From the NCBI RefSeq assembly GCF_037042905.1, contig NC_087251.1:16494001-16554000 (forward strand): DNA of 60,000 nt, written 5' to 3'. This document shows, piece by piece, positions 23,841 through 59,011 of the stretch. Position numbers and translations under genes: made by a program. The notes under the pieces were generated by a model, which searched no databases, had not been told where the DNA came from, and saw only the letters and a program-made list of their open reading frames with translations. The stretch comes from Lytechinus pictus (Eukaryota). Position 1 is the stretch's first letter, and each line of letters opens with the position of its first letter.

Positions 23841-24319
23841 CTAACACAAGATAAAGAGAAGAGACATTGAATGGAAGGCTAGCCTTATATCCGTAGTATA
23901 GACCAATACAGACTAAAGCAGACAAAAATCAAGATGAGACCTTGGTGGGATTTCTAAATGATTTAAATGTGACTTAAAACTGCTCTTAGTCAGGCAGCAT
24001 ACGTCATCTACTTCGACAAATATGCCAAGTTTGATATTTCACTTTCATAAGTACGGTGACATCACAAGGAGAACAATTTTCAACTTGGTGTCAAATTTCT
24101 AATGGTCATCTTGGCCATGATTTGAATTGGACACATGAGGAACTTAAACTGCTTCTCTAAACATGTTTGAGTCTTGTGAATCCCTTATTGTGGGTTGAAA
24201 CTATCCCACATATATGTATATTGATATTAATACAAATAAACAAATGATTAACCAATCTGAGATCTAATCCTTCATACAAGAAAACATACAAATCATGAGG
24301 ATGTTAACACTGAACTCAC

Positions 24320-24573
24320 ATGATAATAGATATTGTGGACAGGGGCACGGCCAGTATCCAAGATGGCATCATAATTCCTGTGGTCAATAATCATCATCCC
24401 ACCGGGACGAAGGAAATCTGCAAAATTCTTGAGGGCCAAGCGCTGGTTGGACAGATTTCCCTCAAAGTCTGGCAGGTTGGCAAAGGAGTTTCCCAGACAG
24501 ATAACAGCATCAAACTTGCCTTCTTGCGATGGCAGATCATCTGGAAGGGTCAACCAATTGGCTACCTCAATTT
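24320..24573 (-). CDS. GNMT: Glycine N-methyltransferase, exon 3
   Basis: IEVANWLTL...[16 protein letters not shown]...RPGG...DHRNYD...NIYY; CAG and GTGAGT boundaries. Confidence 0.95.
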
Positions 24574-24818
24574 CTGTTGGTGGATTAGATTGAACAGTGA
24601 ATAATTACGATGAAACTTATTGTATTCAAATCAAAGTTTAGTAGTAACAATGGTAAGCAATAACTTTTAGAAAGTCTTTTTAAAATCAAGGAATATCGTA
24701 ATGTTAAATTCACAATTTGTTACTATTATTTTACTACTATGTGTATTATAAGCATTATTGTTAAGGACTTATCATTATTTTAATTCAACATAACATCATC
24801 ATTAGTAGGGGAGACCGG

Positions 24819-25614
<796 letters not shown>

Positions 25615-26194
25615 GAGACCGGGGTTAGTTGGAACATGGGGTAAGTTGAAACATTGTAATTTTCTTTAACGTCTTTTAAATTTTAAAATTTCTGCAATAC
25701 TGCCCTCAATTTATTGTCATTAACAATAGCCATCCACCATGTTACAGACAACACATGTGCAACAAGCCTGGTGAAGTTAGAAAGGAATTTTTGTTTTTTG
25801 ACCTTCTGAGTAATGTTTTTCTCTTTCAGAAATGATTGATTATCTCAGAAAAGTTTATAGATCAAGTTGGCCAGTTTGGGGGTATAATCTAGACACTTAT
25901 ACCAAGCTACAAAATGAGGTTATTAATATGCCATGGTGAAGTCCCTTTTTTGTGCTGTAAGCTTATAAACGTCAAATGGGCCTCCGGGGTTAGTTGGAAC
26001 AAAATTGAAGGGGCTAGTTGGAACATGTTCCAACTTACCCCAAACATAATTATGAATAAAAACAATGGATATGAGAAAAAAATATATAAAGTATTTCACA
26101 CTCTTCTGAACATGTATTGTATACCATGCTTGTTTTGTTTATCAGTTAGGTCTGAGTGTGCATTTAAGGCCTTTTGTAGGCCCCTAATGCAATA

Positions 26195-26830
26195 TTAACC
26201 CTTATCAAACTGGGGGGGGGGGTCAATTTGACCCCCCCCTTGAGAAATTTCGTCACTATGCCGTCGCGCGAAATTTTTTGACTACACTGCTCGCTGACTT
26301 TTTACTCTCAAGTCTTGCGCATCATTTGAGACCAAATTTGCGATGCCTGTGTGCGCGGTTTCGAAATTACGCAACATTTTGTACGTGCAAGTTTGGACCC
26401 AATATTGCTAAAAAACGTGATTCCATGTACAAGGTCAATTCAAATTGTGTTTTTCAACCAAAAGTCATAAATGTATGATTATTTTTTACTTTTGTTGGTT
26501 CAAATAGATTTATTTTATGCTATTTATGACCGCAAAAGAGTCCCGACAAAGTTCATCGGAAAAAACAAAGGTTCGAAAAAACAAAAATTAAAATTAAAAA
26601 AACAAAAAATACATATATTTTATTTTTTGCAATTTTTGGTGGATATTTGTAATAAATGTGAAAATTGATACTCTCACCAAAAATTAGCATTCTTCTAGCT
26701 TAATAAATAGAGGTAAAGGCAAAAACATACAAAACACAACAAATTTAGGGCAAATTTCATATGCTCATTTGCATAATTAATTAATGAAAAAAATATAAAC
26801 AATTTATTTTTGTCTTATAAATTTGATGCA
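26195..26830 (+). mobile_element. Truncated piggyBac-like MITE related to 52772-53528
   Basis: TTAA|CCCT start; shared body GCTCGCTGACTTTTTACT..AAGTCTTGCGC..TTTGAGACCAAATTTG; right end missing. Confidence 0.65.
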
Positions 26831-27922
26831 GAAGTACATGAAATTGCTGATAGTACACTTAATTGCATGTAAAATCAAACACACCCAAATATGCAGAATT
26901 CTACTACACAGTCTGCTTGCGTGAGTGGCTGTATAATAGAAAACATAAGTTCAACGAATCCACACTTTATTATTTTGAACTTGAATAAAATAAAGCAAAT
27001 AGGCTAAAACCATGTAATATTACAGTTTTAAGTTGTTTAAGTATAATTCTTAATTGACCATGCAGTGTTCCAACTTACCCCATACCATGTTCCAACTTAC
27101 CCCGTATTAGGGTAAGTTGGAATGTTTGCGATGGTCTTGTTCAAGGTGGATTTTTTCAGTAACCATAATAGAGTTAAAAATTTTATGGGGTACATTTGAA
27201 GCCCTTAGATATATGCTTCAAGCTGATATATTGATTGTTTCTCGAATAAAATCTATTTGGATTTTACAGCCATTTTTGTCAAAAATGTTCCAACTAACCC
27301 TGGTCTCCCCTACTGTATAATTGCTATTATCATCATCAGTATCATCTCCATCATTATCATTATCATTCTCCTCCTCATCATCATCATTATAAATATTAAT
27401 GTCATTATTTTTTAACTTTGAGCATGCATCAAGATATTACAAAATGATATTTCAAAATTATGTTTAATATAGTATTCATTTAATTTCCATGAACATGTAA
27501 CTTAATAACACAAAAATAAAGGCAATTAAAAAAATGGTAACCCCACTTCAAAACATATATCCTGGTAATAACTAAAAGGAAACTATATGTATTTATGTTG
27601 AGAGGTTCATCTCATTCATTATACAACAATATAAACAATAGTAAGAATCAAGGGGCAGCTATACTTGTGATAAAAAGAAAAGATAGCGAAGACAAATATT
27701 TTAGTTGGTGTGGTGTACTTGTTAACTGATGATTACCACCAGTCTTTTTTATCCTGTATATGATACATGCATACTGGTATTTAGTTCTTTTAAATAATAC
27801 TTCACTCTTCATGACATGCATATTAATAAGTGATTTCAACATGGCTAAACTGGTAACAAAGCTTCATATTCGCCATTAAAATGACCTGCAGCAAAATGCT
27901 GTCTCACATCAGAACAGACCTG

Positions 27923-28140
27923 GGGGGTGTTTCACAAATATTAAGTATGACAAAGTTTGCACTTAAATGCCGACGCGTACATGATATGCAACGCGCAATC
28001 TTATCGATCAATACGCAGTGGGGCGCGTCCTCTTGGCATGATCTGACCAATAGGCAATGCTGTCATGCCTTTTATACTGCGTGCAACTAGAAATTTAAGT
28101 GCGACTCTAAGTCATACTTAAATCTTTGTGAAACACCCCC
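27923..28140. mobile_element. PIF/Harbinger-like MITE
   Basis: GGGGGTGTTTCACAAA ... TTTGTGAAACACCCCC with CTG 3-bp TSD. Confidence 0.75.
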
Positions 28141-29864
28141 CTGGGTTCCTAATCATAAAGATTTTTCGGCAATGGTAACATTACAGCAACTACCATGGTA
28201 ACAGGGCTGAGCAGCCAATCAAAATCAAGGTATCCATGGAAGTTAAGTGCAACTCTCCACCTGGGCTATGTTTTGTCCTCTTTTCAATAAAAAATTTGAG
28301 GTATAACTAGAATTTCTGTCTTTTATTTCAATACACAGACTGTGAATGTCAATTCATAAAGATTTTATTTTTCTTAATGCAGCAATCATGTATATGTAGG
28401 GGTTGTTTTCGGGGGAAGGGGGTGTAGAGGAATGATTTTTTTTTTACAAATTGATAACTTGCAACTTTCCTATTTTGACTTGTCTACTACTCTATATATT
28501 CCTGTCAAATAAAAAAAATACAAACTTGTAATTTGTGTCAGACTCCCCTTTAATATTTCATATGGTATAATATTGGTTTGTTCGTATTAAGCCTTCATTA
28601 ATGGTCTGTGTTCATGTACCATCTTTCTTTCATGGTGCTATGTACATACATGTCATAATGTATTGTGTAATTCACAAACTTTCAAATGTAGTTTTAATAT
28701 CTTCTCATACATTTTCAAAGAGATGCAGAAAAAATATAATATCACATACATGTACACTTGAAGAAAACATAGTAAAATTATGTAATATTGTTAAATTCAT
28801 GACTTCATGACTTACATGACTTGCTAGAATATGTGTATCTGGTTAATAATTTATTGGGTTAAAAAAGTGCTAATTGAACAAAGGCATTGAAGCTCAAGAA
28901 CACAGACTAACGATAATACAATTTCCAAATTCAGCCTTTCCATCACCTTGTGAACTGCCAATAACAATGCTTCAATTTAATAGCAGAGAGCTGTACAGTG
29001 TACACACAGCTTAGAACAGAAATTGCTGATTCAGCAAACAAATGTTCAATTCCAATGGACTTTGGAATGTCAGCAAACTCTATAATGTTTGAACAGCATA
29101 AATTAGATTTTGCTATCTCACCTACTACACACAAACAATTATCATTTATGAACAGGACTGCCAATTGGATCATTGTACAATATGAGAAAATAACTTACTT
29201 TAGATTTATTTCAAAAAAAATATATATTCATATTCCTCTGGCCAGTTGTGGAAAGAGATGCACATGCACTTGAAAATCCAACATTATTGAATTTTTAACC
29301 ACTCAGACTCAACACAAGAGCTGTGTTCAAGAATGTTGAACTACTGTTTCATTCCCCCACTTGAATAATATGACATCTTAGTTTTACACCCATGATATTC
29401 TACTATTACATCATCTTGCCTTAAGTATCCTCGGATTTAAAAGAAAAAACAAATTCAGGAATTCCACTATCATGGCCAGTATTGGAATGATGCATGTATT
29501 ATTTCTATTCGAAAACAACATTATTATCTTTGTATAGTGTACATGTACCCACAAGAAAAAGTTGCTACAGGAAGGACCTATATCAAATATCATCTCGATT
29601 GGTACACATGCTGTGATACAAATTAGGGTTTGATTATTGAAAGTGTTACAACCATCAATCACTAAGGGATAGCACCAAAGAAAATGGGGGATTTCATATT
29701 TGCACTGGAGCAATTTTACATTTGATCTCGCTTGGTGTTAAACTTTAAAGAAATGTGATTTGAATAAAACTAAGATTAGCAGCAAAAGAGCTATGAAAAA
29801 AAATCTAACACCAGCATCAAGACTAAACTAGAAATTACACATTAACTTCCCAAATTTTGCTTAC

Positions 29865-29992
29865 CCCATTTATCAAAAGCATCCTCTTTGCGACGACTCC
29901 ATCGTTCCCTGAAAGCCTGCATTATCATTTTGTCAGAGGCATCAACGCTAACCACCTCAAATCCCTCCTCCAGTAACATCACAGAATCAATA
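29865..29992 (-). CDS. GNMT: Glycine N-methyltransferase, exon 2
   Basis: [22 protein letters not shown]...[13 protein letters not shown]; 128 nt; CAG and GTAAGC boundaries. Confidence 0.95.
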
Positions 29993-30529
29993 CTGTTAAA
30001 TTATAAGAAAAATAAAAGTCAAACATGAAATGGAAGACATTGAAGAACATCATTATCTGAAAATGAAAACTTTGCAAGTCATTTAACATACATATGACAA
30101 TTTTATGGACTGGACTCATTTCCTAAATTTCTGCTGTCTTTGCCATAGACATTAATTGGATTTGCAGGTTTGTCAGATGCTCCATAATGTTCATTCCACT
30201 AATGTTTTGCTTCACTACAATGTAGGATACACCCTCTCTATTGGAGGATAATTTTCTTATTTTTATATATATACATGTATAGGTTCAAACAAAGAAAAGT
30301 ATCAAAACTCCATGGACAATAAATTTCAACGAATTTTCGCCCATAGGACTTTGACTTTATTATATATATACCTACATCCTACAAAAGGGCGAAGTCTACG
30401 AATGGGTTTATTCCATCATAATACACATATAGACGTAAAGACGAAGGTAGAGGGCGTTAAGGTGCATTACGAACATTGCAAGAAGACAAAAAAATTCGCC
30501 TTAAACACAGATGTAGAGAAATATATACT

Positions 30530-31145
30530 GGTACTTTTTACTGCTAAACTTTGACTGTTGGCGGTGAGGCCCTTTTCAGATTTTCCAGTTTTGGAGCCGG
30601 AGATTCTCCATTGTCACCTTGCAGTCATGGCAACACGTCTATAGATGCGTCTTTTACAGTGCGCTTCTTCCATCTTCAGTGCATTGATTTTTTGAAAGGT
30701 GAGTTTCACGATCCGTGTGCCCATGAACAGACGTGTTTTTCACGTTTTCAGAAATGGATTTTGAATTCTCTTTTTTGTCATCATGGGCACTAAGAGTGAC
30801 TTTACCTTTCATTTTTGAGAGCTACACGTATGCTCCTTTTAAAAGCTATGATTTTATTTCTACGGCATTTACTAAACCATTTGTGATTATTTTATTAATT
30901 TGCCGAAGCAGACTATTTCTATTTTACTCAGGTACTTTTTACTGCTAAACTTCGACTGTTGGCAGTGAGGCTCTTTTCAGATTTTCCTTTCTTTGAAAGG
31001 TGAGTTTCACAATCCGTATGCCCATGAACAGACCTGTTTTTCATGACTGTTTCAGAAACTGATTTTGAATTCTCTTTTTTGTCACATCATGGGCACTGAT
31101 GAAGAGTGTGACTTTACCTTTCACTTTTGAGAGCTATGCTTCTTT
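30530..31145. repeat. Diverged tandem duplication with an internal deletion in the second copy
   Basis: GGTACTTTTTACTGCTAAACTT.GACTGTTGGC.GTGAGGC at ~30530 and 30931; shared TTTGAAAGGTGAGTTTCAC...GAGAGCTA blocks. Confidence 0.85.
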
Positions 31146-31386
31146 AAATTTTCTTGACAGTTAACGTATTGTTTGTCCTATTTCACTATATAAATGATTT
31201 GGTCTGATATATTTTGTATCCCCCTGATCTGTCTACAGCTTTTAAAAGGTTTAGGCCTATAATATTTGAATATCATGACTTTTAGGTGTAACTCTTTCAT
31301 CCATTGATTTTGTGAAAATTTGGGTTCTATACATTTGATGTAGGGCCCTCTCTCTCTCTCTCTTTTTCTTTAATAATAAACACTTT

Positions 31387-31800
31387 ACGCACACCTTACG
31401 ATTGGTCTGCGACCCGATTTCAGAATAAAATGTAGGCCTAGTAGAATTTGATGCTCATATTGAGACATGGAATATCTTACTGTGTTATGTTCTAAATCAT
31501 CGTACGAATACCTATGTTCAAATCTGTGACTATTCTATCATCCTTCTTAGAATAAAAGCAAATTTAAATATCTAGTCGTAATGACTTCATAGCAGTCGTA
31601 CGATGGCTAGGATTTGAAACTAATTTGGCCTTTACTCCAAAATAAAAGCTTGCAATCTTTCAAAATGGTTATATTAGTATTCTTTCAATTGATTTTAACC
31701 TCAAATAAAATGATATGTTCCATTCATTTTTTCAGAAAATGAGCAAAATGTGATGTGTTCCAAAATCGGACCGCGAACAGTCGTAAGGTGTGCGGTGGCC
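31387..31800. mobile_element. Harbinger-like MITE
   Basis: CGCACACCTTACGA ... TCGTAAGGTGTGCGGTGGCC|TTA; left terminus eroded. Confidence 0.6.
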
Positions 31801-32339
31801 TTACACATGTAATGATTGCATACTGATGCTACAAACTTGCTTGAGAAATGGTTTTATACCAAAAAACATAATTCATTTCTATTCTGGTTGGCATCTTACA
31901 ACCAAATTAAATTTTTGATATGTGAAATCTTATAAAAAATACATCCACTACTAGTACTAGTCTAGACTATTGAAGTTTCCAACTTCAACTTTCATATCAT
32001 CAACATTATGAGTTAAAGGTCATCATTCACAGAACAAGAGAATAAATCTGAAAAGTGACAAAGATTTTTGGTATAATTCATTGAGTGATCACTGATCATG
32101 CTGATTAGACTTGAACTTCTCAAAGTTCTTGTTAGTTCAGCCAGGTTCTTTGAAATATTGCTCTTTTTTGTGTGTAAATGTCATTTTAAAAATACGAGAA
32201 CTTTTTCTTGGATATGATTGGGGCTAGTTTGTTTCTAAAATGTGAGTAAAATATGGACACTTCATCTCCCATCATTCATACAGAGTATGAACTGCACTTT
32301 GCATGTGAATTACAAATGAAAACGTGAAAAGGAACTCAC

Positions 32340-32545
32340 CCAGTACCACAAGCGACGTCAAGCACACGCTTGCAATTCTTCTCCCGGAGCAGCTGGGTGA
32401 TCCAGCTCCGATAAACGTCTATCCTTTCATTGCGGCCGCCGATGTAGAATTCCCAAACTTTCGCTGCTTTTCCATCTGCATACTGGTCGGGAATACCCTC
32501 TGACGCGACTCCCAAAGAACGAGTACGATAGATACTATCAACCAT
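32340..32545 (-). CDS. GNMT: Glycine N-methyltransferase, exon 1
   Basis: [31 protein letters not shown]...[10 protein letters not shown]; 206 nt; GTGAGT donor. Confidence 0.97.
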
Positions 32546-34015: not shown

Positions 34016-35720
34016 CACTGGCGTAAATCCCGGGGGATGGGGGGATATATCCCCCCACTTTTCGAAGAGGGGGGGGGGGGATGGCCTGTACAAACATCCC
34101 CCCACTTTTTACGAAAGAAATGAAAAAAAAATCACAAGAGATAATTGTTTTATTGGTGAAAATTCTACCTGAAATACCGCTTAACAAATAAAACAATATT
34201 ATTGAATCATAAGATGCAAATAAAGAGCCAGTTCACCATTTTCAAACGAAATACTTATGTCCTTATTATAACATTGAAGAGAAACTCCCGTTTCTTCCAA
34301 TTCATCAATGTTGGGGTCTTTGGGAAGGGATTAAGATGGAATGTCAATTCTTTTTTAATGTTATCTCTAATAAAACCATTAAACCGTCATGGGGTAAAAA
34401 AGATAATAATATTGGAGGGGTATTTGCCATATGGACATACAGTGGCGTAACTACGGGGGGGGCATGGGGGGCACATGCCCCCCCCCCCCAATCGGCTGAC
34501 CAAAAAAAAAAACGGGGAAAAGGAGAAAAGAGGGAGAAAGGAAGAGAAGCGTATAGTGGGAAAGAAGAAAATATTATTTATTATAATGTTATATTATAAT
34601 TATGTTATGTTAATTACATTACATAAGAAACATTTTTATCATAACTTCATGAAACATAATTTGCCCAGGGCCTACGTCTTCATTGTTCCTGGTGCTTGCA
34701 TTGTCTGTTAACGAGATATATAATCCTGTTGTACTGAAACATCCCGTTTTCAAGTCAATATAAACCAAATATATTTCCTAGCACTTGAGTTATCATTGTT
34801 TTATGTAGTGACATATGCTTCTTTTTCATGACTCAAAAAGTGATTGCCCCATGTTAAGGTCTTCGTATATATGAAACATTTCCTGTCCGTGATTACGTTC
34901 GCATTAGTGGATTGGTGAGATATGTCTGCTCTTCATGAATTCCTAAAATCAGTCCTTAAAATGTCCCTTCTTCTGATCTGAATATAAAAAATTTTCAGCT
35001 CGCGCTTCGCGCTCGCATCATTTGGATATTGAATTACGTATGGTCCTAGTTAATTCCTACAAAGAAACCTTAGATTGCCCAACTTCAGGTCTGAATTATC
35101 TAAATTTTCAGCTCGCGCTTTGCGCTCGCAATATTTGATTAGTGAGATGCGTATGATAATCATGATTGCAATGACTACAAAAAGTGTTTCATGTGTTCAG
35201 ATGTAATTCTTATAAACCAGCAAGCGCTTGGCACTCGCATTAGATGACTATGGTGAGATATGCATACTCTTAATGGATTCCTAAAATATATTCCTCAAAA
35301 TCTCGCTGTTTGGGGTCAAAATATACGAAAATTTCAGCTCGCGCTTCGCGCTCGTATTGTTTAGCGAGACCTTTTATGATTACACAAATTTGATTATAAT
35401 GTCTTTTTTTCGGTGTGAATATAAAAAAAAATCAGCTCGCGCTTCGCGCTCGCATTATTTGATCAGTGAGATGCATATCCGTTTAATGACATTGTCCAGA
35501 AAATGTCTCTATTAGGTCAGTATAACTGGCAACTGAGCGCGCTCACTCAGTGATTCAAACATTTTGCTGGTGCCCCCCTCCCCAATGCCGTGACCCACGG
35601 TACGCCACTGTGGACATATCAATGACAATTCCTTGCATATCTAAAAACATGATTGCAAAAAAAAAAAGCCAAAATATTTCAGTCATCCCCCCCACCCATC
35701 AACACGGATTTACGCCAGTG
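34016..35720. mobile_element. hAT-like non-autonomous element hosting 34440-35610
   Basis: Perfect 15-bp TIR CACTGGCGTAAATCC / GGATTTACGCCAGTG; no TSD recognised. Confidence 0.7.
34440..35610 (+). mobile_element. Non-autonomous hAT-like element with TTTTCAGCTCGCGCTTCGCGCTCGC repeats
   Basis: TIR CAGTGGCGTA / TACGCCACTG; perfect 8-bp TSD TGGACATA at 34432-34439 and 35611-35618. Confidence 0.9.
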
Positions 35721-36250: not shown

Positions 36251-36889
36251 GGAAAAAAAATCCGGTGAGGTCATCTGGGGCAGTATCAGGCGAAAAACGC
36301 AATTGGAGGATCTCCCCAATCAACTTTATACAGAAACTCATTCCGAATAAATTTGCTCTATATGATCCCTCCTATTGGCATGTATATTTCCCCAGTTTCC
36401 TTGATAAAAAAATCAAATGTTTCAACAGTACAGTAGGATAAATCCAAGTCAACCTTTTTCAACTTTGCCATAATAATCAACACTTTGATTGTGGGCATCA
36501 ACGGAAAGACAAGACAACATCATTGGTATTTTTCAAAAATTATTCTCAAATCTCAGGAAGACATGTGTCTAAATAAGAGTATTTCGGAATTTTCTTCAGT
36601 ATATACGTATAGTCATAAGTGACTAGAAGATTTGATCTCAATTGTGATAAAAAAACTCCAGTAGGATAAGATTTGATGGAATTGCTGATTAAAAAATCTC
36701 ATGGAAAAGCAAATCTTCTGGAATACTAAATCTTTATTTACAGTTTAGATTGCATGACTCTAGATCGGCAATAGCAATATGATCATGTCAACCCGCATAC
36801 CGATACGCGTTTATTTTCTTTCTTATTTCTGTTGCCCCTTGGCCTTGCTGACCGGTCGCGAAGCGGGAGTCGATCTTTCAAATTCAAGC

Positions 36890-36901
36890 ATGTTTTATCA
36901 C
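36890..36901 (+). CDS. POLR2G: RNA polymerase II subunit RPB7, coding exon 1 (MFYH)
   Basis: ATG TTT TAT CAC|GTAAGT after a CpG-rich leader; supplies the conserved N-terminus missing from exon 2. Confidence 0.88.
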
Positions 36902-37614
36902 GTAAGTGACTCGTAAATATGTTGATTATGCTTGGATTTCAATAATACTGCCCATTTGCTACTACAGAGATAAATATTTTGTATTATTCTATCGTCAAGT
37001 CATTGATAATGTTGATTAACTTTTCCTTTTTTTTGTTAATGTTCCCACCTATTGATTTCTGTGTTGGTGTGATGAGTAGAGGAGTTAACCAAGCTAAATT
37101 AATAATAAGATGAGTGCCGACCGCAGCTTCGCGGGTGGCGTAGCCAGGGCAGGAGGCTCCAAAGTTAGAGAGTAAAAATCATTCACTAACTGGCTCCACG
37201 GAGTCGGTGATTGTGCACCTGCACCCATGGCTGCATTACATGCCGCCCTGCACACAGAATAATCGCAGGCACGGGCTAGTCTGCTGGGCAAACCCTTCGC
37301 TCGAGTTAAGGGTCTGAATGTGCAGCCTACTCATGCCTTGTGTACTGAAGGCTCTCTCGCCTTGGAACAGCAAGTTTTGTATGTGCTAGTCTTTGCATGG
37401 AGGCACACTTGTTGATCAAAGTTCGGCATAATCGTGATATAGTCCCCAAATCCAAAAGTGGGGATTATTAGAATCACACCTACCAGAACGCATGAAAATC
37501 ACTTCCTTTCTCCAGAACACAGTCCCCAACTCTCGCACAACTCTGTGGCAAAATGATAACACACACAAATGAAACACACACTGTATATATAAACACTAGG
37601 GTTCTCTCCCTATT

Positions 37615-37920
37615 ATATACTCGTGATCCAGTCCCCACTCAATGGGAAATCCAGTTTGATTTTCACGGCGGTGGGGACAGTTCCAACAGTATATATACTC
37701 GTGATCCAGTCCCCACTCAATGGGAAATCCAGTTTGATTTTCACGGCGGTGGGGACAGTTCCAACAGTATAGTATACTCGTGATCCAGTCCCCACTCAAT
37801 GGGAAATCCAGTTTGATTTTCACGGCGGTGGGGATAGCTCCAACAGTATTCATACTCGTGGTACCGTCCCCTCACAACATAAAATCGTGCTCGTTCAACA
37901 AGGGGATGGGGACAGTTTCC
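37615..37920. repeat. 78/79-bp tandem repeat x3 plus one diverged unit; mirrored at ~38805-39110
   Basis: TCGTG anchors at 37621, 37699, 37778, 37856. Confidence 0.95.
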
Positions 37921-38076
37921 TGATGCATTGTGACAAGGATAAAACATCTTAGGGTATGGCTGCGGAAGCTGAGGGAGGGGGGGGGGGGGACTTCAGCCCC
38001 TACCTTTTTCCAAAACATTGTGAATCCTTCTGAACTAAAATCCTATAGAAATGCCTTCATATATAGCATAAAAGTG

Positions 38077-38296
38077 CAGTCTTTTTTCCAGACCCGGTTA
38101 ATTAAAAATTGTAATATAAGTTCAAAGTCTTTTTTTCCAGACCCGGTTAATTAAAAATTATAATATAAGTCCAAAGTCTTTTTTTCCAGACCCGGTTAAT
38201 TAAAAATTATAATATAAGTCCAAAGTCTTTTTTTCCAGACCCGGTTAATTAAAAATTATAATATAAGTCCAAAGTCTTTTTTTCCAGACCCGGTTG
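38077..38296. repeat. 49-bp tandem repeat; inverted, more diverged copies at ~38430-38650
   Basis: ACCCGG anchors at 38092, 38141, 38190, 38239, 38288. Confidence 0.95.
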
Positions 38297-40264
38297 TTTC
38301 TTGTTTTTATTGTTTCTCGTGATTTCCTATTTTGAAATAACTGGAGCAAAGACTACACCATATTTCCGTGCTATTCAATGTTGATAAGATTGCAGGGTTT
38401 TTGTTTTGTTGTGTTTTTAACAATTTTTATAACTGGGTCTGGAGGAAAGACTACGCTATATTTCCATGTTATTTAACAATAATAAGAGATTGGGGATCTT
38501 TATTACTTTTTTACTCTTTGAGAAATGATTTGTAAAAGTGGGTCTGGAAAAAGACTGAACTTATATTATAATTTTAACAACCGGGTCTGGAAAAAAAGAC
38601 TTTGAACTTATATTACAATTTTTAATTAACCGGGTCTGGAAAAAAGACTGCACTTTTATGTTATGTGAAGGCATTTCTATAGGATTTTAGTTCAGAAGGA
38701 TTCACAATGTTTTGGGAAAAGGTAGGGGCTGAAGTCCCCCCCCCCCCTCCCTCAGCTTCCGCAGCCATACCCTAAGATGTTTTATCCTTGTCACAATGCA
38801 TCAGGAAACTGTCCCCATCCCCTTGTTGAACGAGCACGATTTTATGTTGTGAGGGGACGGTATCACGAGTATGAATACTGTTGGAGCTATCCCCACCGCC
38901 GTGAAAATCAAACTGGATTTCCCATTGAGTGGGGACTGGATCACGAGAATACTATACTGTTGGAACTGTCCCCACCGCCGTGAAAATCAAACTGGATTTC
39001 CCATTGAGTGGGGACTGGATCACGAGTATATATACTGTTGGAACTGTCCCCACCGCCGTGAAAATCAAACTGGATTTCCCATTGAGTGGGGACTGGATCA
39101 CGAGTATATAATAGGGAGAGAACCCTAGTGTTTATATACCCGGTACATACAGTGTGTGTTTCATTTGTGTGTGTTATCATTTTGCCACAGAGTTGTGCGA
39201 GAGTTGGGGACTGTGTTCTGGAGAAAGGAAGTGATTTTCATGCGTTCTGGTAGGTGTGATTCTAATAATCCCCACTTTTGGATTTGGGGACTATATCACG
39301 ATTATGCCCAAAGTTCCAATGAGGGTCTGTGCCTGCAGACTAGGCACGGGCCTACTCACACAACATGCGAGGTTAGTAACCTCGCACAACGCATGTGATT
39401 TCATAGTGCATTTTGACGTTTTCATTCATCACACAAATGTCAGGGAATGAAACATGTCAAAAAGTTCAACATATTTCCTATACGTAATTTACAACAATCA
39501 CCTAGCTTTATATTATAAATTTATTTGAAATTATTTGTAAAAATGATTTTTTAATGCTTACCTCCAAATTTTGGCCAAGATACTCCGTCTGTCCGTCCAA
39601 GTACTGCGGTGGAAATCACGCAAACAACGATTGAAATGCGATTTTTCCTATCGAACAGTCTCGATTTAAGTCGGAAATTGTAGAAAAAGAATCAACAGGT
39701 TGCATTTCATTTTTTTTTTTTTTTTTGAATAATATTTTATTTTCTTCCTCTTTCAAATCAATAAGTTGACAATCACAATTCATATAAATAAAGATTCTTT
39801 GCATGTATACAATCAATAAACAATCAAACAAATAAATATATCAATATCAATGAGATTACAAATATTTTTAAAATGATTACAAATGAAATTAAACTGCCAA
39901 ATTTCTCTTCTATGACAATGTGAAACATTTTTTTTTTTAATGTGAAAAAAAAAAAAATCTCTTATAACTCTTCCCCAAAAAGTACATAATATAGCATAAA
40001 ATTATTTCAATATTTTTTGTATATCAAAATTATGTCAAATCAAATAAACTACTTTTTTTCATGAAACTCTATGCTCCTTTTAGAGGAAGATTACATATAT
40101 ATAATCTTTCACACACCCACGCACCCTCACACACATACACGCACACAAAAACCCTCACGCACACACATCATACAACAGGTAGCACATCCGTTCTGGTCTG
40201 TCGATCTGTAACTTTGTATCATTGAAAAAAAAAAAAAAATATATATAATACGATAAATGATAAG

Positions 40265-43200
40265 TCAAAGAAATGCACCAATTTGTTCCCATTTTCTTAA
40301 GTGTACTCCCAAATTCCCTGTTTTCTTGGCTTTATTATATTCTTCTTTTCTGTAACCTTTAATCATATCTGTTGTTTTTTGTACGGACGGTGGTTCGCCA
40401 TTTCCTCTGGAAATAAAAATTATATGTTTTAGCAGAAAGATTATACAGTTTATTGCATGTATTCTCACACATTTACCAGATAGACCGATGAAAATTGTTT
40501 TCCAATCATCAATCCTAACTTCCTTTAAATGAAGCTTTTTGATGACCTCCTTCCATAACTGTTTAACCTTTAAACAATCTAAAAATAAATGTTGGTATGT
40601 TTCTACCTGTTGTTTACAAAAAGAACAAAAATTGTCTGACTCAAAACCAAATTGGAAGAGCTTCTCTTTTGTATACACTACCCCATGTAATAGTTTGTAC
40701 TGAAACTCCCTTTGTTTACTACATATAAAAGCATTCTTCAATCTTGTAAAGGTTTCTTTCAACTCCCCTATTCCAAGATCATATTCACAATGTCCATCAT
40801 AAACCTTTAGAGTGTACTCTTTTTGAAATTGCTCAATAAAGTAATTATATATATATCTGGCTTTTAAATCCATAAATTTATGTAGGTAACCAAAGATCTT
40901 CAGTTCTATTTGAAAATTTTCACTATCTATAACTATAAAATCACTTTGTATCCATTCTTTTTTAATCACAGAAAAAATTCTTTGAATCATCAGCAGATTA
41001 TCAGCAGTGTAACCCCGGTTATGGAAATATGAGACTGGTCTTAGTTGACCTCCTACAATAATATCTGATGCTTGAAATATACCTTTCTGAAAGAGTTCAA
41101 CATCAAAAAAAGGTTTATTATGAAGACATATAAATCTGTTGTTAAAAATCACAGGATTGATCTTGTTTTCCTCAAAGTTTCTACATTGATCCAAATCTTG
41201 CCATGCTTTCAACATATCTTTATAAAATATTGGTATACCTTGTAAGTCCATTTTATTTGCATCATAATTACAAAGAAATATACTCCGGCCTCCCAATGAT
41301 CTAAAAAAGTAGTCAAAGGTTACTTTCCAACCTAAATATTTCTCACCGTACAGCAGCCTTTTAATCCACATAATTCTCTGAGTTTTAATGAAAACTTCAA
41401 AATTAGTTACTTTGAGTCCCCCTCCACAATAATCTTGATATAGAATTTTCCGTTTTATTCTGTCATTTCCACCCCAAATGAAATTAAAAGAAATCTTTTC
41501 AATTTCTTTAAAGATATTTTGAGGAACTGAAATAAGAGAAGAAACATAATTTAATTTTGAAAATACATGCATTTTTAACAATCTAATTTTACCAAACATT
41601 GTCAGATCTCCATCCAATTAATCTTTTGATTTTACTCAAAATTTCTTTATAATTTAGGTCATCTTTTATTTTGGAGTCTCATGAAAAATATACCCCTAAA
41701 ATGTGTATATATTGCATTCTATGTCCAAACAGAGGTAAAACCGGCCTATCACATTCTTCCCCCAACCACATAAAATTTGTCTTATCCATGTTTATTTTCA
41801 AACCACTCAATTTCTCAAACTCTCCGAAGACTTTCTTCACCCTATTAACTGAGTACGTGTCTTTTAGAAACAATGTACAATCATCTGCGTACAATACTTG
41901 TTTTATTTTTCTTTCACCAAACCCAATCCCTTCAATACCCGGATCATTTCGAATAGAATTAGCAAGTAATTCAATAGCTATAATAAATAAATAAGGAGAG
42001 AGGGGATCTCCTTGTCTTACTCCTCTTTTAACCTCAAAATATCCAGTTGAGTGTCCCCCATTCATCACACAGCTACTAACGTCATTATAAAGAATTCTAA
42101 CCCAAGAGCACAATACATTACCAAAACCAAAAGATTTCAATGCTTTAAATAGAAGTCTATGTGATATACAATCAAATGCTTTTTCGAAATCTACAGCAAT
42201 TACAAATCCTACTGGCTGATATAAGGATTGAAAGAATACATCGTCTATTAACCTCACTGCCTCTCCAATATTCCTATCTTTAACATACCCTACTTGGTCA
42301 TAATGAATAATGTCCCCTAGTACCTCTTTTACCCTTTTAGCTAAAACTTTTGACAATATTTTGTAGTCTACATTAAGAAGTGTTATTGGTCTGTAGTTTT
42401 TCATATATAAATGATCTTTTCCATCCTTTTCAATTAGGGTAATTACTCCCTGTCTCTGCGAGTTTGATAACATTTCTGTATCAAAACTTTCATTAAATGC
42501 TTCAACAATAAATTTCCCTAAAATTGGCCAAAACGTAAAATAGAATTCAGCTGTAAAACCATCATTACCTGGTGACTTATTCCATTTCATTTCCTTTACC
42601 GCTTGATAGCATTCTTCAAATGATATTGGCCCTTCACAAAAATCCTTATTTTCTTCATTCAACTTGGGCAATTCATTAAAAAACATATTGTCAATATCTT
42701 CTGCACTATCACTATTTTTGTATTCATATAAATGCGCATAAAACTTCTTAATAGTGGTTAAAATATCTTTGCTATCACACAAAATTTCCCCGTTTTTACT
42801 GTATATCTCCTTAATCACGCTTTTCCTTTTATTTGATTTCAATAATTGTTCAAAAAAAGCTGAATTCCTTTCACCTTCTTCGGACCATTCCACCCTCGAT
42901 CTCACCTTTAATCCTTGACGAGAGTAATCGAAGAGCTGCTCTAATTCACTTTTTTTCGATTCGATTTCATCTTGAATTCCATTGTGAAAATTAGTAACCA
43001 AATGATGTTCTAAATCTTTAATATCCTTTTCTAATTTTTCAACCTTTGTTTTTCTAATTGCTGCTTTTTTACGAGAGAATTTCATAATATATTCTCTAAG
43101 TTTCATTTTCATAAAATCCCAAAATTTAATTTTACTATTTATTTGGTCTCGCCAGGTTCCCTCTATTTCAGAAACCTCCATTTTTATCTCTTCTACAAAT

Positions 43201-44002
43201 TCTTTATCATTACATAAGCTGCTATTGAACTTCCAATATGATTTCCCATAAATAAAACTCTCAACCAAGTTGCTAAATTCTACACAGACCCCAGCGTGAT
43301 CAGGTGTAATAGAGGGTAAGATGTCAGATTTTTTTACAAGCTTCTCTAATTTCGAAGAGATGAAAATATAATCTAATCTACTCTGAACAAATGGCTGTTT
43401 CTGTCTAAAAGTAAATTCTTTTTTATTTGGATGACGCTTACCAAGAGCTTATCTAGCTTATCTAGCTTATCAAGAAAATCACCTAATAAATCTTTGTATT
43501 TATTTTTTGAAACATTTCTCGCACCCATGTAATCTAAGTCATGGTCTATACTTAAATTGAAATCTCCCCCAATTATCAGAGAGCATTCTTCACTAAATAC
43601 AGATGAAATTATTTTGTCCAAATCAGAAAGAAAATCACATTGGGCCTTTCCTTTATCTCCTGTTGGAAAATATACACTTCCTAGTATCAACTTTTCACTT
43701 TGACATTTACCTTTTATTATAATATATCTTCCGCCTTTGTCTATTAAAACTTTTTCTATCACAAAATCAACATTCGATTTAAACATGAGAATAGTTCCCC
43801 TACTGTGATTACTCCCGTGACTAAAATACATCTCCCCTTCCCAATCAGCCTTCCAACTATTTTCAATATCTTGTGTGCTAAATGTTTCCTGTAAAAATAC
43901 TACATTTCCTGACCTTTTGCACCATTGAAAAATTTTCTTTCTTTTTACTTTATCTCTTAGCCCTCTTACATTGACTGTGAGTATTTTTAAATTACCCCTC
44001 AT
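40265..44002 (-). pseudogene. LINE ORF2 (APE endonuclease, reverse transcriptase, CCHC zinc knuckle), disrupted
   Basis: NVRGL, FLQET, GGDFN, SRLDY, PDH; KSPGNDG, NYRPITLLNVDYKI, DFEKAFD, QGDPLSP, YADD; CSFC..ETYQHLFLDC. Lesions: frameshift ~43440, TGA 41679-41681, frameshift ~41610. Confidence 0.93.
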
Positions 44003-44354
44003 TGGTGAAGAGTTGCCACAGTGATAGGACACGAAATGGTGCATTCCCTACTTCAGAAATAAGAGCTTTTAAGTAAAGTTGAAAATAATACAAGTACAGA
44101 CAGACACAGAAACTTCCAATTACACACATAGCACCCCACTCATTCACATCCACACCAGAACTGGAAAACATACCACTCAACGTATCACTCCACTTCATCC
44201 CAACAAACATAACACATACACTTCTGCAAACATACTCAAACACACGCCCATAGACTATCCTTTGCACGCACAAACACCCCAAGACACTCTCACAAACACC
44301 CCAACACACGCACACCAGCATGATTGACATATATCCTATAGACCCGCAGTTCCG

Positions 44355-44386
<32 letters not shown>

Positions 44387-47328
44387 TTATAGAGCAGCCA
44401 TTTGTATGCTGTCCATATTAACATTATCTCCCTTGTCTACAGAAAATATCTACCTATATAACGCTGAGAAAAAAAAAATAATAATAATAAAAGAGTCCGA
44501 AAGAATAACCTGATTCTGTGTTTTAGCCCTTGTCCCATATCAAAGCTAGACTTAAAACGTTTAGACCTTCATAACATTTGGAGTGAACACATGTAAGAGT
44601 GAACCCAAATAAACCTACATAATAGGATATAACTCACTTGAAACGTATAGCATACTTAAAGATACCAGTCAAAATGAATACAGGACATCCAAGAGGGTTC
44701 TTATTGTAAAAGGTATTATCTGACTGCACCGATAAAGGATACAGTTGATACTATGTTCCAACCTGTCCAAACTATTCCTATTCTTCTACATCCTAATTGA
44801 AAAGCAAATGGCAAAAACTCTTCCGGATACACAAAAATTCCCAATAACAATAACATCGTTCCAATAAACATATACAGCAGGACTTGTATACCTGCATTGG
44901 CATATTTGTTATTCTTCTGTAAACCAATATGAATGAGATTTGGTATGAGAAGAGCTACTACCATGTGTCCTCTATTTATAATAAGCATGATAAGTGATAC
45001 AATGAATGAAAGAAAAAAAAAACACCTTTCAATCAATTCAAATCAAATGACAATACCAACAACAAAGTCATGATTATCCTTAAGAATGTATACGGGAATC
45101 TTTCAGACTCGTTCTGTGATGTAGTCATACATGTTCCACCCACTAGACCCATTACATTATGAATGCATGCATGGAACAAACATTTACCCCACACAATAAA
45201 CGTCATTCAAAATCGCTCTGTCCCCCAGTTCATCAGAATAAATGACAAAACTCTTCAAAGTACTTGAGATCCCATGTAAAATAGCGCCGTTCTAATCAGA
45301 ACAATCAGAAACAAATGAGAGCAAATTTCTTGTCACTCGAATAGCTGGTTACTTTCAATAACATTAATGGAGCTATTCAAATTGCCTATGCTAATTTGTT
45401 TAGAGCCATTGTAACACAGATATCCTAATAATGTACTCTGCCAATTAAAGCTATACCTGCCTGAAGCAAAATCCTTCCACTCCTTCATTATTTTGTTTCA
45501 TTGAATATGTAGATCAATAACCCCTAAAGAAATTTCAAAGACTCTAATTGTTGGAAGTGTCATTCCATGTGACTATTATCATTCAAAAATTCATGGGATG
45601 GGCGATAGAAAAAAGACTTAATGCATAATCACCAGCAAAAGGATCTTGCTTTCAACTCAGGGTCATACAGACGAATGAATTATCAATACAAAATTGCAAA
45701 TGCACACAGAGCTATTCATCCTGTCTACCTTCATTAGCAATATTTATTCTTTTATAAACCGATTTAAGGTTATGCATTTAAATTAGACTGTGCATTGCAT
45801 TACTTTTTCCCCCTTTTTTGGGCTAAAAGTGGTATAGTGAATGAGCCAAGAAACCCCTTCCTACCTTGCAAATTCAAGCTCAAAATTAATTAATTGCAAG
45901 TTAGGTAATATTTTTGTACCTTATTGTTTCAACACACCAAAGATTAGTGCATTAACTCTCTCAAAAATATGTAAAAAATTAAAGAATTTTAAAGAATGTT
46001 ATTTAACATCTTTTTTGCCAGTCCCTCTCTCTCCCTCCGCCTCTCGCTTACAATAATGACGATACCAATGTACGATCGGAATGCGCTATTTTTTTTTTTT
46101 TTATCCAATTAACATCATAACTTTTGAAGGAAGATTTACCTTTTTTGTCTTCCTTTTTTTCAGACAGTTACTCCTCCTATCCGCTATACAAAGCGAAGAG
46201 ATTGACATAACCAGATACATGTAGCTATAGATATTGGCATCAGACCTACAACATTTAACTAGCATTCCTGTCATTATTAGAGGCAGTCCCCGAGAGCGTA
46301 TAGAGAGGGAGAGAGAGAGATAGAAAGAGATCATAAAATAAAAATGCATATTGTAAATACATACAATGTATACGCATATCCACTTATTTATAATGGATAA
46401 AAAAAGTATCTCTTCAAATCCATAGTTATTTTGCAAAGGAAATCCATACTTATTTTACAAAGTAGCTCCACAGCACTTTAATTCACTGCAGTTAAAAAAA
46501 AAAAAAAACTGCAACTTAAAATGCCATTTCCTTTTTCCTCCCTTTCTCTTGGTTTGAACTTAAAGTTTTGTTATTACTTATTCCCACAAATATAAAAGAG
46601 AAATGGTGAAAGAAAAAAAAAACAATAGAAGAGGCTTTCTTTAGTAGGCCTATATTTTTAAATATTTACTTGGTACATATAAGAAGGCCTAAGAATAGCC
46701 TGCACAAGCAATCAGAGCCACTTTAGGCTCTAATAAATATTTATTTAAAGAAAGAAAAAAAAATATATGTATACAGGTCTATGTTACTTTTACACAAAAT
46801 AAAGGGTGATTATTCCATGAACGTCTTCTAGTTTCTTCATTCTAGTTTCTTCTCGTTGCATAATATCTTTGATAATAAAAAAAAAATATCAGCTCTCTAG
46901 CTTTCCACTTTTGAACATTGCGTCTCCTTTCCTTCCTTGCGTCAAAAATAAGATAAGATAAGATAAGAGTACGCAATATCTTTTCTCACACCACGCTTTA
47001 GTTATTGCTGTTATATTTTCCTGTCTTCTTTGTCCTGCATTTCTCTTCCTTTTTGTTTGAATAGGAATATTCTTCAATCATCCTCATTGCATCTTTCAGA
47101 AATAATATACAATTTTGGTTTTAGTTGACTCGCATTTTGTTGTGAAATATTCATCAAACTAAATTCTTATCACAGTTTAACAGTTTAAATGGTGTTTAGA
47201 AGGGTCTCACTTTGTGAAAACCTCTTTAACTCCGTAGTCTAGAAAATTAAATGCTTAGTGTAAGCGAATGTAAACATAACTGATACTTATCCAAGCTTTT
47301 CTCCTTGTATTCTCATAGCGCCAGTTGC

Positions 47329-48144
47329 TTATTCAGGGAGATTGGGCTCTGCACCAGTAGCTACCTGAAGACGTATTCCTGGGTTACCGGGATGTGTCTC
47401 TGTAGGAAGTTGCCGAATGAACACTTGTTGTCTCTCCCGTGGCACGTAAACTCGATCGATATACAATTTCCAAGGTTCGCTTCGGGAGAAATAAGCCATC
47501 TTACCTGAAGACCGGGCTGCCTTTAAGGCTGGCAATTGAGCTCTTTGACGTTCTCTTATTCGCAGTGGGAGATCCTCTGTAATAAACATGCGTGAACCTT
47601 TCAAATTCTTCGCCCTTAGAAACACAGCAGCGCGATCTTTATATCTTAAAAATCTTGCAATGATGGGGCGCGGTCTTCTGGCAGAGTTGATCCGATGGGC
47701 TCTTTGAAATTCAATCCTATCTGCAATCGCTCTATCAAATCTAAGATGCTCCACAAAAAAGTCCCGTAAAAGGTTCTCCACATCTTCCTGTTGATTACCT
47801 TCTACTATTCCGTGAAAAAGTAAATTTTCTCAATTAATGTATGTCTTGAGACTGTCAATTTCCTGGTTGACTATTTCCTTATCCTCCTCTATTTTCTGCT
47901 GAAGTTCTGAAATATTCTGTCCATTAAAAGTGACCGAATTCACAACATCGTTAAGTTTTTCTTCAAATTTCTTTATTTTGGCTCCAAAGTTAAGTTCCAA
48001 AACTTGAATTCTTTCTAGTACCTTTCCTATCTCCTCTGCTAACATATTCTTAATGGCAGGCAAGAGAGCAGGTCCTTCGGGACTAGAGCCGGTAGATGGT
48101 CGAGGGCGTTTCCCGCCTTGTTTCCCTCGATGACCGCTCGACAT
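47329..48144 (-). pseudogene. LINE ORF1 (L1-type coiled coil, RRM, CTD) with one in-frame stop
   Basis: The two track ORFs are in the same frame: ...YIN*ENLLFHGIVE...RAHR...PRPIIARF...ITEDLP; TGA at 47830-47832. Confidence 0.9.
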
Positions 48145-49568
48145 TTTCGTAGTTACCGATATTTTTTCAACTTCAAATATCCACGTTACATAATGGGAGA
48201 GAGGAGGCGAACCCGCGATACGTGTTACTCAAGGACGAACATGCTGATATAATTTCATGTATATACTTATAGGTAAAGTGCGCCATCTTTTGACAGATGA
48301 TGATGAAAGTGGATTGAACGAGCAAGAAAATAATGCTGAGCGCCTAGAATGCAGCTAGCAGTACAAGCTGCAGACAAACGGTACAAACCGGCATAAGAAT
48401 AATATCGCATGCCCTCTTTAGGCAAAAATTGATATCCATGCTGATCAGGAGGCATCTACATGAAGATCAAGCAAAAATGCTTTTTTTTAATTAAAAAAAC
48501 AGCAAAGAGAATTCAACAAACGATCATATGGTTCGGTAAGTGTCATAGCACAATTAGAAATCTTAGCTATAATGGTATGTCATAGTTATTTGAGCAAAAA
48601 GGGTGTGAAAGATTCGCGTGCACCAGGTGCATATGAATCCTTCGCACGCGAGATGAATTGAACCCATGGGTGGCACGGGCCATGGCGCATGCAGCACTCG
48701 GAGTCGTACTCGCATGGCCAAATTCAAATTGAACACAAGCCATAACCTTGTTCTCTGTAACATCTCCATCAAACATTGCCAACCTTATTGTGCCACACAT
48801 GGAGTGGCACAATATAAGGTTGGCAATGTTTGGCTTATTTTCTCTTTTTCTTTGGGACAAATGCTTGATTTTTTTTACACTATCAGTATCAGTTTCCATT
48901 ACAGCTATTCATCATATAACTTGGCTCTTAAGTAAATTTGATTCTTTGAATATTTTTTCTTAATTAAAAATAGAGATTAAAAATGAAAATTTTCTTGCCA
49001 TATTACTTTCCACTAATAGAAGGGCATGTTATACACAAAAATATGCCCAAAATTCAAGTTTTTGAGCGCTCTGGTGAATACAAAAATTATTCCCAAGTTA
49101 CTAATGAAAAATATATTGCAACTGTACAAAAATTAGTATTTTGGGGCACAAAGTGATATCTTAATGATTTTTTAAAGTGTGTGCTGTATACTGCATGGGC
49201 TCCAATATAATTTTAATCCTGTTGGCCCAAAATAGTTATATTTTTAACTAATATTACACATAATGAATGAATTAAAAGTAGAGGAGCGTTTACTCACAGA
49301 CTGTTATTGTCGCCATCTTGCCGTCTTAGTTATCGTAGCCTAGCTACAAGAAGCGTATAGAGGGCGACAATATCATGAGCAGTGCAAAATTAGAATTTAA
49401 AAAATACTTGTAGTTGTATCGGCCAATAAATATCATGAATCTTAGCTGAAAGATAATGCTTTGAGATGCCTCCACTCAGCAATCGATATGTCTCAAGCTG
49501 CTAAATCAAATTATCAATACTTGGTATCAAAATAAAGTTAAAAATTTCTCATGATCATCCCATTTTGA

Positions 49569-51446: not shown

Positions 51447-51457
51447 GTGAGTACTTA

Positions 51458-52611
51458 TTTTTGTCTCACCTGCGAAGCAGAGTGAGACTATAGGCGCTGC
51501 TTTTCCGACGGCGGCTGCGGCGTCAACACCAAATCTTAACCGAAGTTTTTTAAATGACAGCATAACTTAGAAAGTGTATGGACCTAGTTCATGAAACTTG
51601 GCCATAAGGTTAATCAAGTATTACTGAACATCCTGCCGTAGTTTCAGGTCACATGACCAAGGTCAAAGGTCATTTAGGGTCAATGAACTTAGACCATGTT
51701 GGGGGAATCAACATCAAAATCTTAACCTAAGGTTAAGTTTTTGAAATGTCATCATAACTTAGAAAAGATATGGACCTAGTTCATGAAACTTAGACATAAG
51801 GTTAATCAAGTATTACTGAACATCCTGCTTGAGTTTCACGTCACATGACCAAAGTCAAAGGTCATTTAGGGTCAATGAACTTTGGCCAAATTGGGGGTAT
51901 CTGTTGAATTACCATCATAACTTTGAAAGTTTATTGGTCTAGTTCATAAAACTTGGACATAAGAGTAATCAAGTATTACTGAACATCCTGTGCGAATTTC
52001 AGGTCACATGACCAACGTCAAAGGTCAATAAACTTTGGCCATAATGGGGGTATCTGTTGAATTACCATCATAACTTTGAAAGTTTATGGATCTGATTCAT
52101 GAAACTTGGACATAGAGTAATCAAGTATCTTTGAACATCCCGTCCGAGTTTCAGGTCACATGACCAAGGTCAATGAACTTTGGCCATGTTGGTTTTTTTT
52201 TTTGAATTACCATCATATTGGTGTAATTGTATTTGTCTAGTTCATAAAACGTGGACATAAGAGTAACCAAGTATCACTGAACATCTTGTTTGAGTTTCAG
52301 GTCACATGACGAAAGTCAAAGGTCATTTTAGGTCATTGAACTTTGGCCATTTTAGAGGTGATTATTAGATTGCTGTCATAACTTTCAAAGTCTATAGATA
52401 TAGTGTATAAAATGTGGATATAGGGGTAATCAAGTATCACTGACAAGTTTTAGGTCACATGATCAAGGTCAAATATCAATGAACGTAGTATTGTATCATT
52501 ATATGAATGGTGTTTTTGTGAATAATTATTTTATAGTAGTTTTCAAAGTCAGTACTGCTGCTATATTGAATCGCGTGATGCAGGTGAGACCGCCAGAGGC
52601 ATTCCACTTGT
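51458..52611 (+). mobile_element. Second HINE/Tsp-like element, ~6 tandem units
   Basis: GTCTCACCTGC ... GCAGGTGAGAC; colinear with 10350-11841. Confidence 0.8.
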
Positions 52612-52771
52612 TCATGTAAGAAAATCATACGAAATCATATTATCTGTTGTTCTGTTCATGATTTGCAAATATTATTTTGTTGCTTAATTTCCCTACAAAA
52701 TTTGGAACATACAAAGCTAAGTTTCAATGTACATTGAAATTGGTGTGAGGCAAAGCTATGTCATCTGTTAA

Positions 52772-58154: not shown

Positions 58155-59011
58155 CTGTGAATAGTGCAAAAGAATATTAAAATTAAAAGACAGTATGATA
58201 ATGAATATCTTGAACAAAAGAATGATGACCAAATGGTGCACATTGGATTTCACATGAAAATTCTGAAATGAAAGAAAACATGGCTATAGGTAATGATTAT
58301 TCATAAATGCCTTTCATGTGTCATGATATGTATGTACTTGACAATGTTGAGTTCTGTATTATGTTGTAAATAAATTTTGTATATAACATAGAAGTCTTTA
58401 TAACTTAGTAACTTTATTAGCTTTGAGATCATTTTCCAATGACCACGCGTGCAGACCAATCTACGAGACTAAATGAACAAATTAATTTTAAACTATAGTA
58501 ATGGATCCAGTGACTACTGAATTATGTAATCCCCACACTGCATACAGCAACATTTTGTATTCATTTCTCAACCGATCTACCCCTCCTCCAGGCCAAAAGT
58601 GATCAATTAAATATACAACCTCACAAGAAATTTAGAATGACAATGTTCTGGGGAGCGTGTCATGAAAGGTTTAGTCGGTGATTATCACCGACTAATTTGC
58701 TCTGAGCCAATGGGATACAAGGATTTGCAGTAGCTTATAACAATAATCGGTGAAAATCACCGACTATTTCATGAAATGCTAAATCAATCTCCATAATATA
58801 TCCTATTTATACTTTCCTTGGAATTTATTTCACCTGGGCCTTGAACAAATGGTAACTTTGCCATTCAAAGGTAACATCCATCAAATCCTCACTTTTGATT
58901 TGCTATTAAGCATTGTTACCATGGTAGTTGCCACTGGATGACAAAGTTACCCTACTAGTCACTTTCATGCGACATATCTCTAATTCTACCACTCCTGGAG
59001 ACATATCTCAC

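Follow-up and report, generated by a model that had tools for sequence, protein, structure and literature searches.

The window, by which we mean the whole 60-kb stretch of DNA that was analysed, comes from an intron-rich animal genome. A glycine N-methyltransferase (GNMT) gene lies on its minus strand, with exons over 24296-32545 (among them one at 24296-24601) and the start codon at 32545, and exons of a Peptidase_S9 (prolyl-oligopeptidase-family) gene are found at 58958-59383, also on the minus strand. The foldback element that is the subject of this analysis is situated about 4.9 kb upstream of the GNMT start codon.

Several other repeats share the window. A LINE on the minus strand (40265-48228), which we take to be L1/Tx1-like, encodes endonuclease, RT and zf-RVT domains in three separate stop-to-stop frames and has ORF1-like frames further upstream. 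A 1,171-bp MITE-like repeat at 34440-35610 is bounded by CAGTGGCG..CGCCACTG ends and has TGGACATA as its perfect 8-bp direct repeat; pieces related to it occur at 1559-3276, 4731-4979 and 24966-25394, and the GC-rich ends that it shares with other short repeats of the window are presumably hAT-like. A perfect 335-bp direct repeat (17348-17682 and 18270-18604), together with a 129-bp repeat of 99% identity (17220-17348 and 17681-17809), constitutes either a very recent duplication or an LTR-like structure. Related arrays of 163/192-bp tandem units, 83% alike, are found at 10346-11842 and 51455-52612 and probably represent one dispersed repeat family.

The element, its target-site duplication and its host repeat

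The element and its immediate surroundings contain the following features.

37425..39308, no strand assigned: whole foldback element, non-coding, 1,884 bp
37417..37424, plus strand: left 8-bp target-site duplication (TSD), CAAAGTTC
39309..39316, plus strand: right 8-bp TSD, CAAAGTTC
37277..37424, plus strand: left part of the host repeat, which measures 174 bp without the insertion and has the ends TAGTCTGC..GCAGACTA
39317..39342, plus strand: right part of the host repeat, the sequence read by contig loose ends behind 37423/37424
37268..37276, plus strand: left copy of the host repeat's own 9-bp direct repeat, GGCACGGGC
39343..39351, plus strand: right copy of the 9-bp direct repeat

The initial annotation had described a 1884-bp non-coding element, and its coordinates and length were confirmed, as were its termini, GGCA at the start and TGCC at the end. 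A coding role was rejected: the longest stop-free frames of the element measure 61-98 codons (six frames), and the one frame that was tested had no match in Pfam. Rfam gave 0 matches to the element at E<=1. The CAAAGTTC direct repeat that brackets the element is perfect; 8 bp would match by chance at this fixed position with a probability of about 3e-5.

To the interval 36300-37690, which extends only over the left flank, the outer arm and the first of the 78-bp units, we aligned the contigs of four (X1, X13, X8 and X11, from organisms A, D, B and C, respectively) of the 24 runs listed. The 148 bp left of the element are part of a very abundant repeat, with a summed depth of up to 775,000 in X1 compared with 69-76.5 in flank contigs. 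At its left border, this host repeat adjoins numerous flanks that are unrelated to one another (71 and 89 contigs, agreement 0.35), and in the window the repeat is surrounded by its own perfect 9-bp direct repeat. At 37423/37424, contigs depart from the window sequence and continue with the sequence of 39317-39342 from the right side of the element; the consensus of the loose ends at 37424 agrees with the right flank at 25 of 26 letters. Such empty-site junctions were found in 84+40 contigs of X1, 18+5 of X13, and one each of X8 and X11. Host-repeat paralogues without the insertion carry the CAAAGTTC 8-mer once in all four runs. Because these uninterrupted paralogues hold a single 8-mer, the element must have inserted with an 8-bp duplication. 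Thus, CAAAGTTC is a true TSD, as had been claimed, and the empty sites are paralogous sites, not an orthologous allele. The element is inserted inside a copy of a 174-bp high-copy, transposon-like repeat.

It might be argued that there is no mobile unit here, and that the structure is an inverted duplication of local origin or an artefact of the assembly, the 8-bp repeat being fortuitous. This would agree with the absence of a second copy of the element from the 60-kb window and of a full-length second copy from the window and the contigs of the four runs over 36300-37690. It conflicts with the uninterrupted paralogues and their single 8-mer, and with the arm itself, which has no homology to the flanks and is present in contigs of four differently labelled organisms. 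Additionally, the two arms differ at 8 places, and a mirrored assembly error would not give these differences. We therefore give this explanation almost no credence and regard it as essentially refuted. With no gene and a TSD established from paralogous empty sites, the element is a real, gene-less, hairpin-shaped, non-autonomous cut-and-paste DNA transposon, which is also what the initial annotation had taken it to be.

The host repeat has TAG..CTA ends and a 9-bp direct repeat. Academ transposons have TAG-type ends. For AcademH, TSDs of 9-10 bp are given in the available part of PMC10045372. The host repeat could be AcademH-like, a similarity that we offer as a lead only. To its right, within 39353-39393, there is a 21-bp near-perfect hairpin (39366-39386) in GC-richer sequence. 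This GC-richer sequence carries on from the stretch on the left side of 37268, so that a third element may in turn enclose the host repeat.

Composition and construction of the arms

Each arm is built from an outer and an inner module, with the following parts.

37425..38147, plus strand: left arm, 723 nt, delimited by alignment to the right arm
38580..39308, minus strand: right arm, 729 nt, delimited by alignment to the left arm
37425..37467, plus strand: terminal unit, with a Merlin-like GGCATAATC end followed by the motif common to the 78-bp unit
37614..37917, plus strand: left array, 3.3 copies of a 78/79-bp unit and a diverged fourth
38807..39110, minus strand: right array, mirroring the left array
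37955..38077, plus strand: start of the inner module, a MITE-like end with a G tract
38650..38769, minus strand: mirror copy of the inner module start
38078..38295, plus strand: left 49-bp array, 4.5 copies, 98% matches
38296..38649, minus strand: right-side units (48 and 45 nt), followed by diverged units (104, 98 and 59 nt) that share the core motif, forming the unpaired middle

The description of near-identical inverted arms of ~725 bp proved accurate: in the alignment of the left with the right arm, 716 positions match and 4 are substituted, and 4 gap events take up 12 bases, one of these events being a 9-bp insert in the right arm. The three 78-bp units and diverged fourth attributed to each arm were likewise recovered, as 3.3 copies with 94-95% matches followed by the fourth unit. 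The outer part of the arm, which had been called unique, is not so, as it carries the motif of the 78-bp unit: the terminal unit and the 78-bp unit agree at 15 of 18 bases. The terminus of the element is thus a shortened 78-bp unit and itself the first unit of the repeat series.

What the units have in common is an inverted motif. The terminal unit contains an inverted GTCCCCA/TGGGGA pair with a spacing of 10 nt, and every 78/79-bp unit of the left array contains one inverted GTCCCC/GGGGAY pair. GTCCCC/GGGGAC occurs 6 times in 373 non-redundant arm bases, compared with 0.15 times per kb in the rest of the window, with the qualification that the diverged fourth unit in this count is partly dependent on the other units. 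The 78-bp repeats had also been described as structured. In single-strand folding, five sequences (the terminal, 78-bp, diverged and 49-bp units and the start of the host repeat) did not go beyond their shuffles (z -1.97 to +0.80). Because the units fold no better than shuffles, we read the inverted GTCCCC motif as a repeated protein-binding site rather than an RNA hairpin. The inverted GTCCCC/GGGGAY pairs are thus candidate transposase-binding sites.

Inward of the 78-bp arrays, the type of repeat switches abruptly at about 37955. The sequence that begins there (37955..38077) resembles other GC-ended repeats of the window, and the inner module looks like a captured MITE end. A 49-bp array had been assigned to each arm. 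Arrays of this type are indeed present on both sides, but they are asymmetric: the left one has 4.5 copies with 98% matches, whereas the right one has 2.4 copies of a roughly 47-bp unit at 85% and continues inward as diverged units. From the right end inward, the units measure 48, 45, 104, 98 and 59 nt, with growing divergence. On the left side, the first unit is copied, three identical 49-mers are added, and the array ends partway into the second unit. The left 49-bp array may be a recent local expansion.

These features bear on how the element was assembled. In what would be the simplest history, both arms derive from one element end that already carried one end of an unrelated MITE; this composite end would have been copied in inverted orientation, and the left 49-bp unit would then have been expanded by slippage. 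Another possibility is simple nesting: the outer element would have been shorter and purely palindromic, and a complete MITE (about 37955-38769) would have inserted into its centre. The abrupt switch of repeat type would suit nesting, as would the similarity of the start of the inner module to other GC-ended repeats, one of which (34440-35610) has its own 8-bp TSD. However, the flanks of the inner module (TCTTAGGG / CCCTAAGA) are reverse complements of each other and do not form a direct repeat, which argues against a plain nested insertion. The sole possible TSD is a 2-bp TA with a shifted border, which inverted arms yield automatically, and the middle of the element reads as a continuation of one side only. 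We consider nesting a conceivable but doubtful route, and prefer inverted copying of one composite end. Nesting concerns the construction of the element and is compatible with its mobilization by Merlin.

Copy number, age and spread

Contigs with the outer arm were present in all four runs compared (X1, X13, X8 and X11). In X1, the summed depth of the outer-arm bins is 4,937-44,121, and single contigs reach 2,567 and 4,088 compared with 69-76.5 in flank contigs; contig depth is not equal to copy number, and more than one copy may underlie the flank contigs. The X1 depth fits a multi-copy family, and the outer arm looks multi-copy in organism A. A tandem loop of the 78/79-bp unit was also found in contigs of X1, X13 and X11. 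In one X1 contig, the terminal unit is joined almost directly to the start of a unit (joint 37444->37637), as would be expected of a shorter relative of the element. A second insertion site was not seen, as there were no loose ends before 37425 among the matches listed for the contigs of the four runs.

The identity of the arms is no clock for an element with terminal inverted repeats (TIRs), because the arms are inherited from the donor copy and can be homogenized. The perfect TSDs of the element and of the host repeat suggest a fairly recent insertion, and nothing beyond that.

Over roughly 250 bp, the main arm variant of X1 has a 4-bp deletion and about five listed positions at which it departs from the window; mismatches of the X1 flank contigs to the window amount to 16 of 245 and 19 of 332 letters, with gaps in addition. 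For X8 (organism B), the interval 37443-37690 is covered by five contigs, which show 1 substitution and 2 gap letters. X8 had 11 matched contigs in all, and the host repeat appears in two listed contigs, at 10-14% divergence and a depth under 3; it dominates organisms A and D and is scarce in organism B. Since host DNA, if it were the contaminant, would be expected to come with an excess of the host repeat, contamination is disfavoured as the source of the arm in X8. A near-identical arm in organism B gives a weak hint of either horizontal transfer or strong conservation. The idea of a transfer is weakened by X17 and X18, two other runs of the same sample as X8, because they contain next to none of the words of the element. 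X8 itself has a word share of 0.13, compared with 0.16 for the outer arms and 0.37 for the whole element, which would fit an organism B that has the outer module without the inner one; as the contig comparison covered the outer part, we do not count this as evidence.

It is improbable, in our estimation, that this is a foldback family driven by Merlin that is spreading at present and has passed between species. If it were, and if organism B is a distant species, then a gene-less, minisatellite-armed Merlin derivative would have undergone recent horizontal transfer among marine animals; the DNA-binding site of the Merlin transposase could then be sought with the 78-bp unit as a ready probe.

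The helper transposase and related systems

The initial annotation had noted that GG termini and an 8-9-bp TSD fit Merlin or MULE. Both still fit, and the choice can be narrowed towards Merlin by a match of the terminus and by catalogued zebrafish Merlins with a similar architecture. Merlin is defined by 5'-GG ends and 8-9-bp TSDs (available text of PMC8101967), and the foldback element has 5'-GG..CC-3' termini and an 8-bp TSD, the latter known from one insertion. Its TIRs of 723-729 nt exceed the 24-462 bp given in the first description of Merlin, as related in the same text, but are within the 1,000 bp of two Repbase Merlins. For the termini, we compared 27 of the 28 alignment starts in the S3 Appendix of PMC8101967 and retained the 12 TIR-bearing F families; 15 alignments (G groups and kinetoplastid contigs) have no defined TIRs and were dropped. 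A match to Perkinsus G1 was discarded as a Merlin terminus for the same reason, as it belongs to the G groups. All 12 retained families begin with GG, and 5 begin with GGCAT. In Monocercomonoides F2, two of six rows end in the last 9 bases of the element, two differ by one base and two are divergent; this is a match to a distant protist family that was found by searching for it, with no control set of MULE or other non-Merlin termini. By hand comparison, 14 of 17 terminal bases of F2 and the element are alike. Additionally, the accessible entries in the S1 table of PMC8101967 give 1,000-bp TIRs for Merlin-N5_DR and Merlin-1_DR, which also have tandem repeats close to each end; for Merlin-2_DR, they give 79-bp arrays near either end.

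The same element could be moved by the same mechanism with a Mutator/MULE transposase, as are Tm1, Muta1 and, as has been proposed, Tetris. MULEs have TSDs of 8-11 bp and long TIRs (excerpts of PMC6446971), and both descriptions apply to the element. Aedes MULEs with 8-9-bp TSDs and subterminal tandem repeats are described in PMC5225508, and most foldbacks are placed in Mutator in PMC4079207. On the other hand, the terminus of the element matches authentic Merlin ends (from the retained S3 families), the commonest MULE TSD is 9 bp (parts of PMC3169594 and PMC6446971), and Merlins of the same architecture are catalogued in the S1 table entries. Three terminal motifs had 0 matches in three supplementary files, which may contain no terminal DNA. 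We think that a MULE helper is unlikely and that Merlin is probably the helper of the foldback element; there is only a slim chance that the helper belongs to neither group.

Pattern scans were made for relatives. In metagenomes, the 24-nt terminus gave 0 loci and a two-part motif gave 7; in viral contigs, a 17-nt motif gave 9 loci, the 18-nt terminus 2 and the end of the host repeat 0; and neither of the two scans of GTDB genomes gave a locus. In all 18 loci retrieved, the similarity does not go past the motif, and we treat all of them as chance matches; the longest, 33 nt at 82%, falls within a glycine-cleavage gene of a bacterium. Thus, no transposase gene with the ends of the element was found in the metagenome, viral-contig or GTDB scans.

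Based on the Merlin assignment, we propose a model for the movement of the element. A Merlin (IS1595-family DDE) transposase would act on it in trans, binding the GTCCCCA-type motif both in the terminal unit and, where it forms inverted pairs, in each of the 78-bp units. The 78-bp array may in this way supply extra transposase-binding sites. The transposase would then cut at the GG ends and insert the element with an 8-nt stagger.

Foldbacks with tandem arrays, and Merlins of this architecture in Repbase, are already known, and the element is probably a genuine foldback of the Merlin type. We found no published description of this family in the literature on sea-urchin foldbacks, Merlin foldbacks and echinoderm transfer, most subscription journals being outside the search. 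Sequence look-ups likewise gave nothing that resembles the element or its host repeat. Foldbacks are usually filed under Mutator by default. The 8-bp TSD and Merlin-type terminus support an independent origin of the foldback architecture in several superfamilies, Merlin included, as the zebrafish Merlins of Repbase already hint. The repeated inverted motif, read from the sequence, would provide a concrete candidate binding site for the Merlin transposase. Otherwise, the element simply adds to the many foldbacks of a repeat-rich animal genome.

The element has the hallmarks of the foldback class, namely long modular TIRs with tandem repeats and a target-site duplication on insertion. The TU foldbacks of sea urchins reportedly have long modular arms, an 8-bp TSD and outer 15-bp tandem repeats. 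The element resembles them in its long modular arms and its 8-bp TSD in a sea urchin, but it lacks the outer 15-bp array: the only trace of a 15-bp period in it is a two-copy 15-mer at 37551-37581 and its mirror, and its array periods are 78 and 47-49. Tetris of Drosophila virilis is also non-coding and, in the available text of PMC4079207, has TIRs of three domains, the intermediate one being a tandem array between a flanking and an inner domain, an 8-10-bp TSD and, as in the element, an array that shares a stretch with the outer domain. The Tetris array has been proposed to add transposase sites, and the repeats of Galileo are reported to hold extra ones (both in the same text). Unlike the element, with its 78-bp units and Merlin-like ends, Tetris is larger, has 220-bp units, is tentatively assigned to Mutator and is tied to satellite DNA. 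Tm1 (PMC3169594) and Muta1 (PMC5225508), as far as the available parts of these papers describe them, share with the element composite TIRs with tandem motifs, non-autonomous derivatives and 8-10-bp TSDs, but have repeat units of 12-15 bp and known MULE transposases; Tm1 additionally has mostly 9-bp TSDs and asymmetric ends (PMC3169594).

The Merlins provide the remaining comparison. A captured MITE-like inner module, present in the element, is absent from the zebrafish Merlin descriptions in the accessible entries of PMC8101967. The 79-bp arrays of Merlin-2_DR were compared with the 78/79-bp period of the element by coordinates only, and are a lead, not homology. Merlin-N5_DR is, like the element, non-autonomous; according to its table entry, its TIRs measure 1,000 bp and both of its arms contain 113-bp arrays. 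Finally, the Merlin superfamily (IS1016/IS1595-related), to the extent that these sources cover it, has in common with the element the GG ends, the 8-bp TSD and the GGCAT-type terminus.
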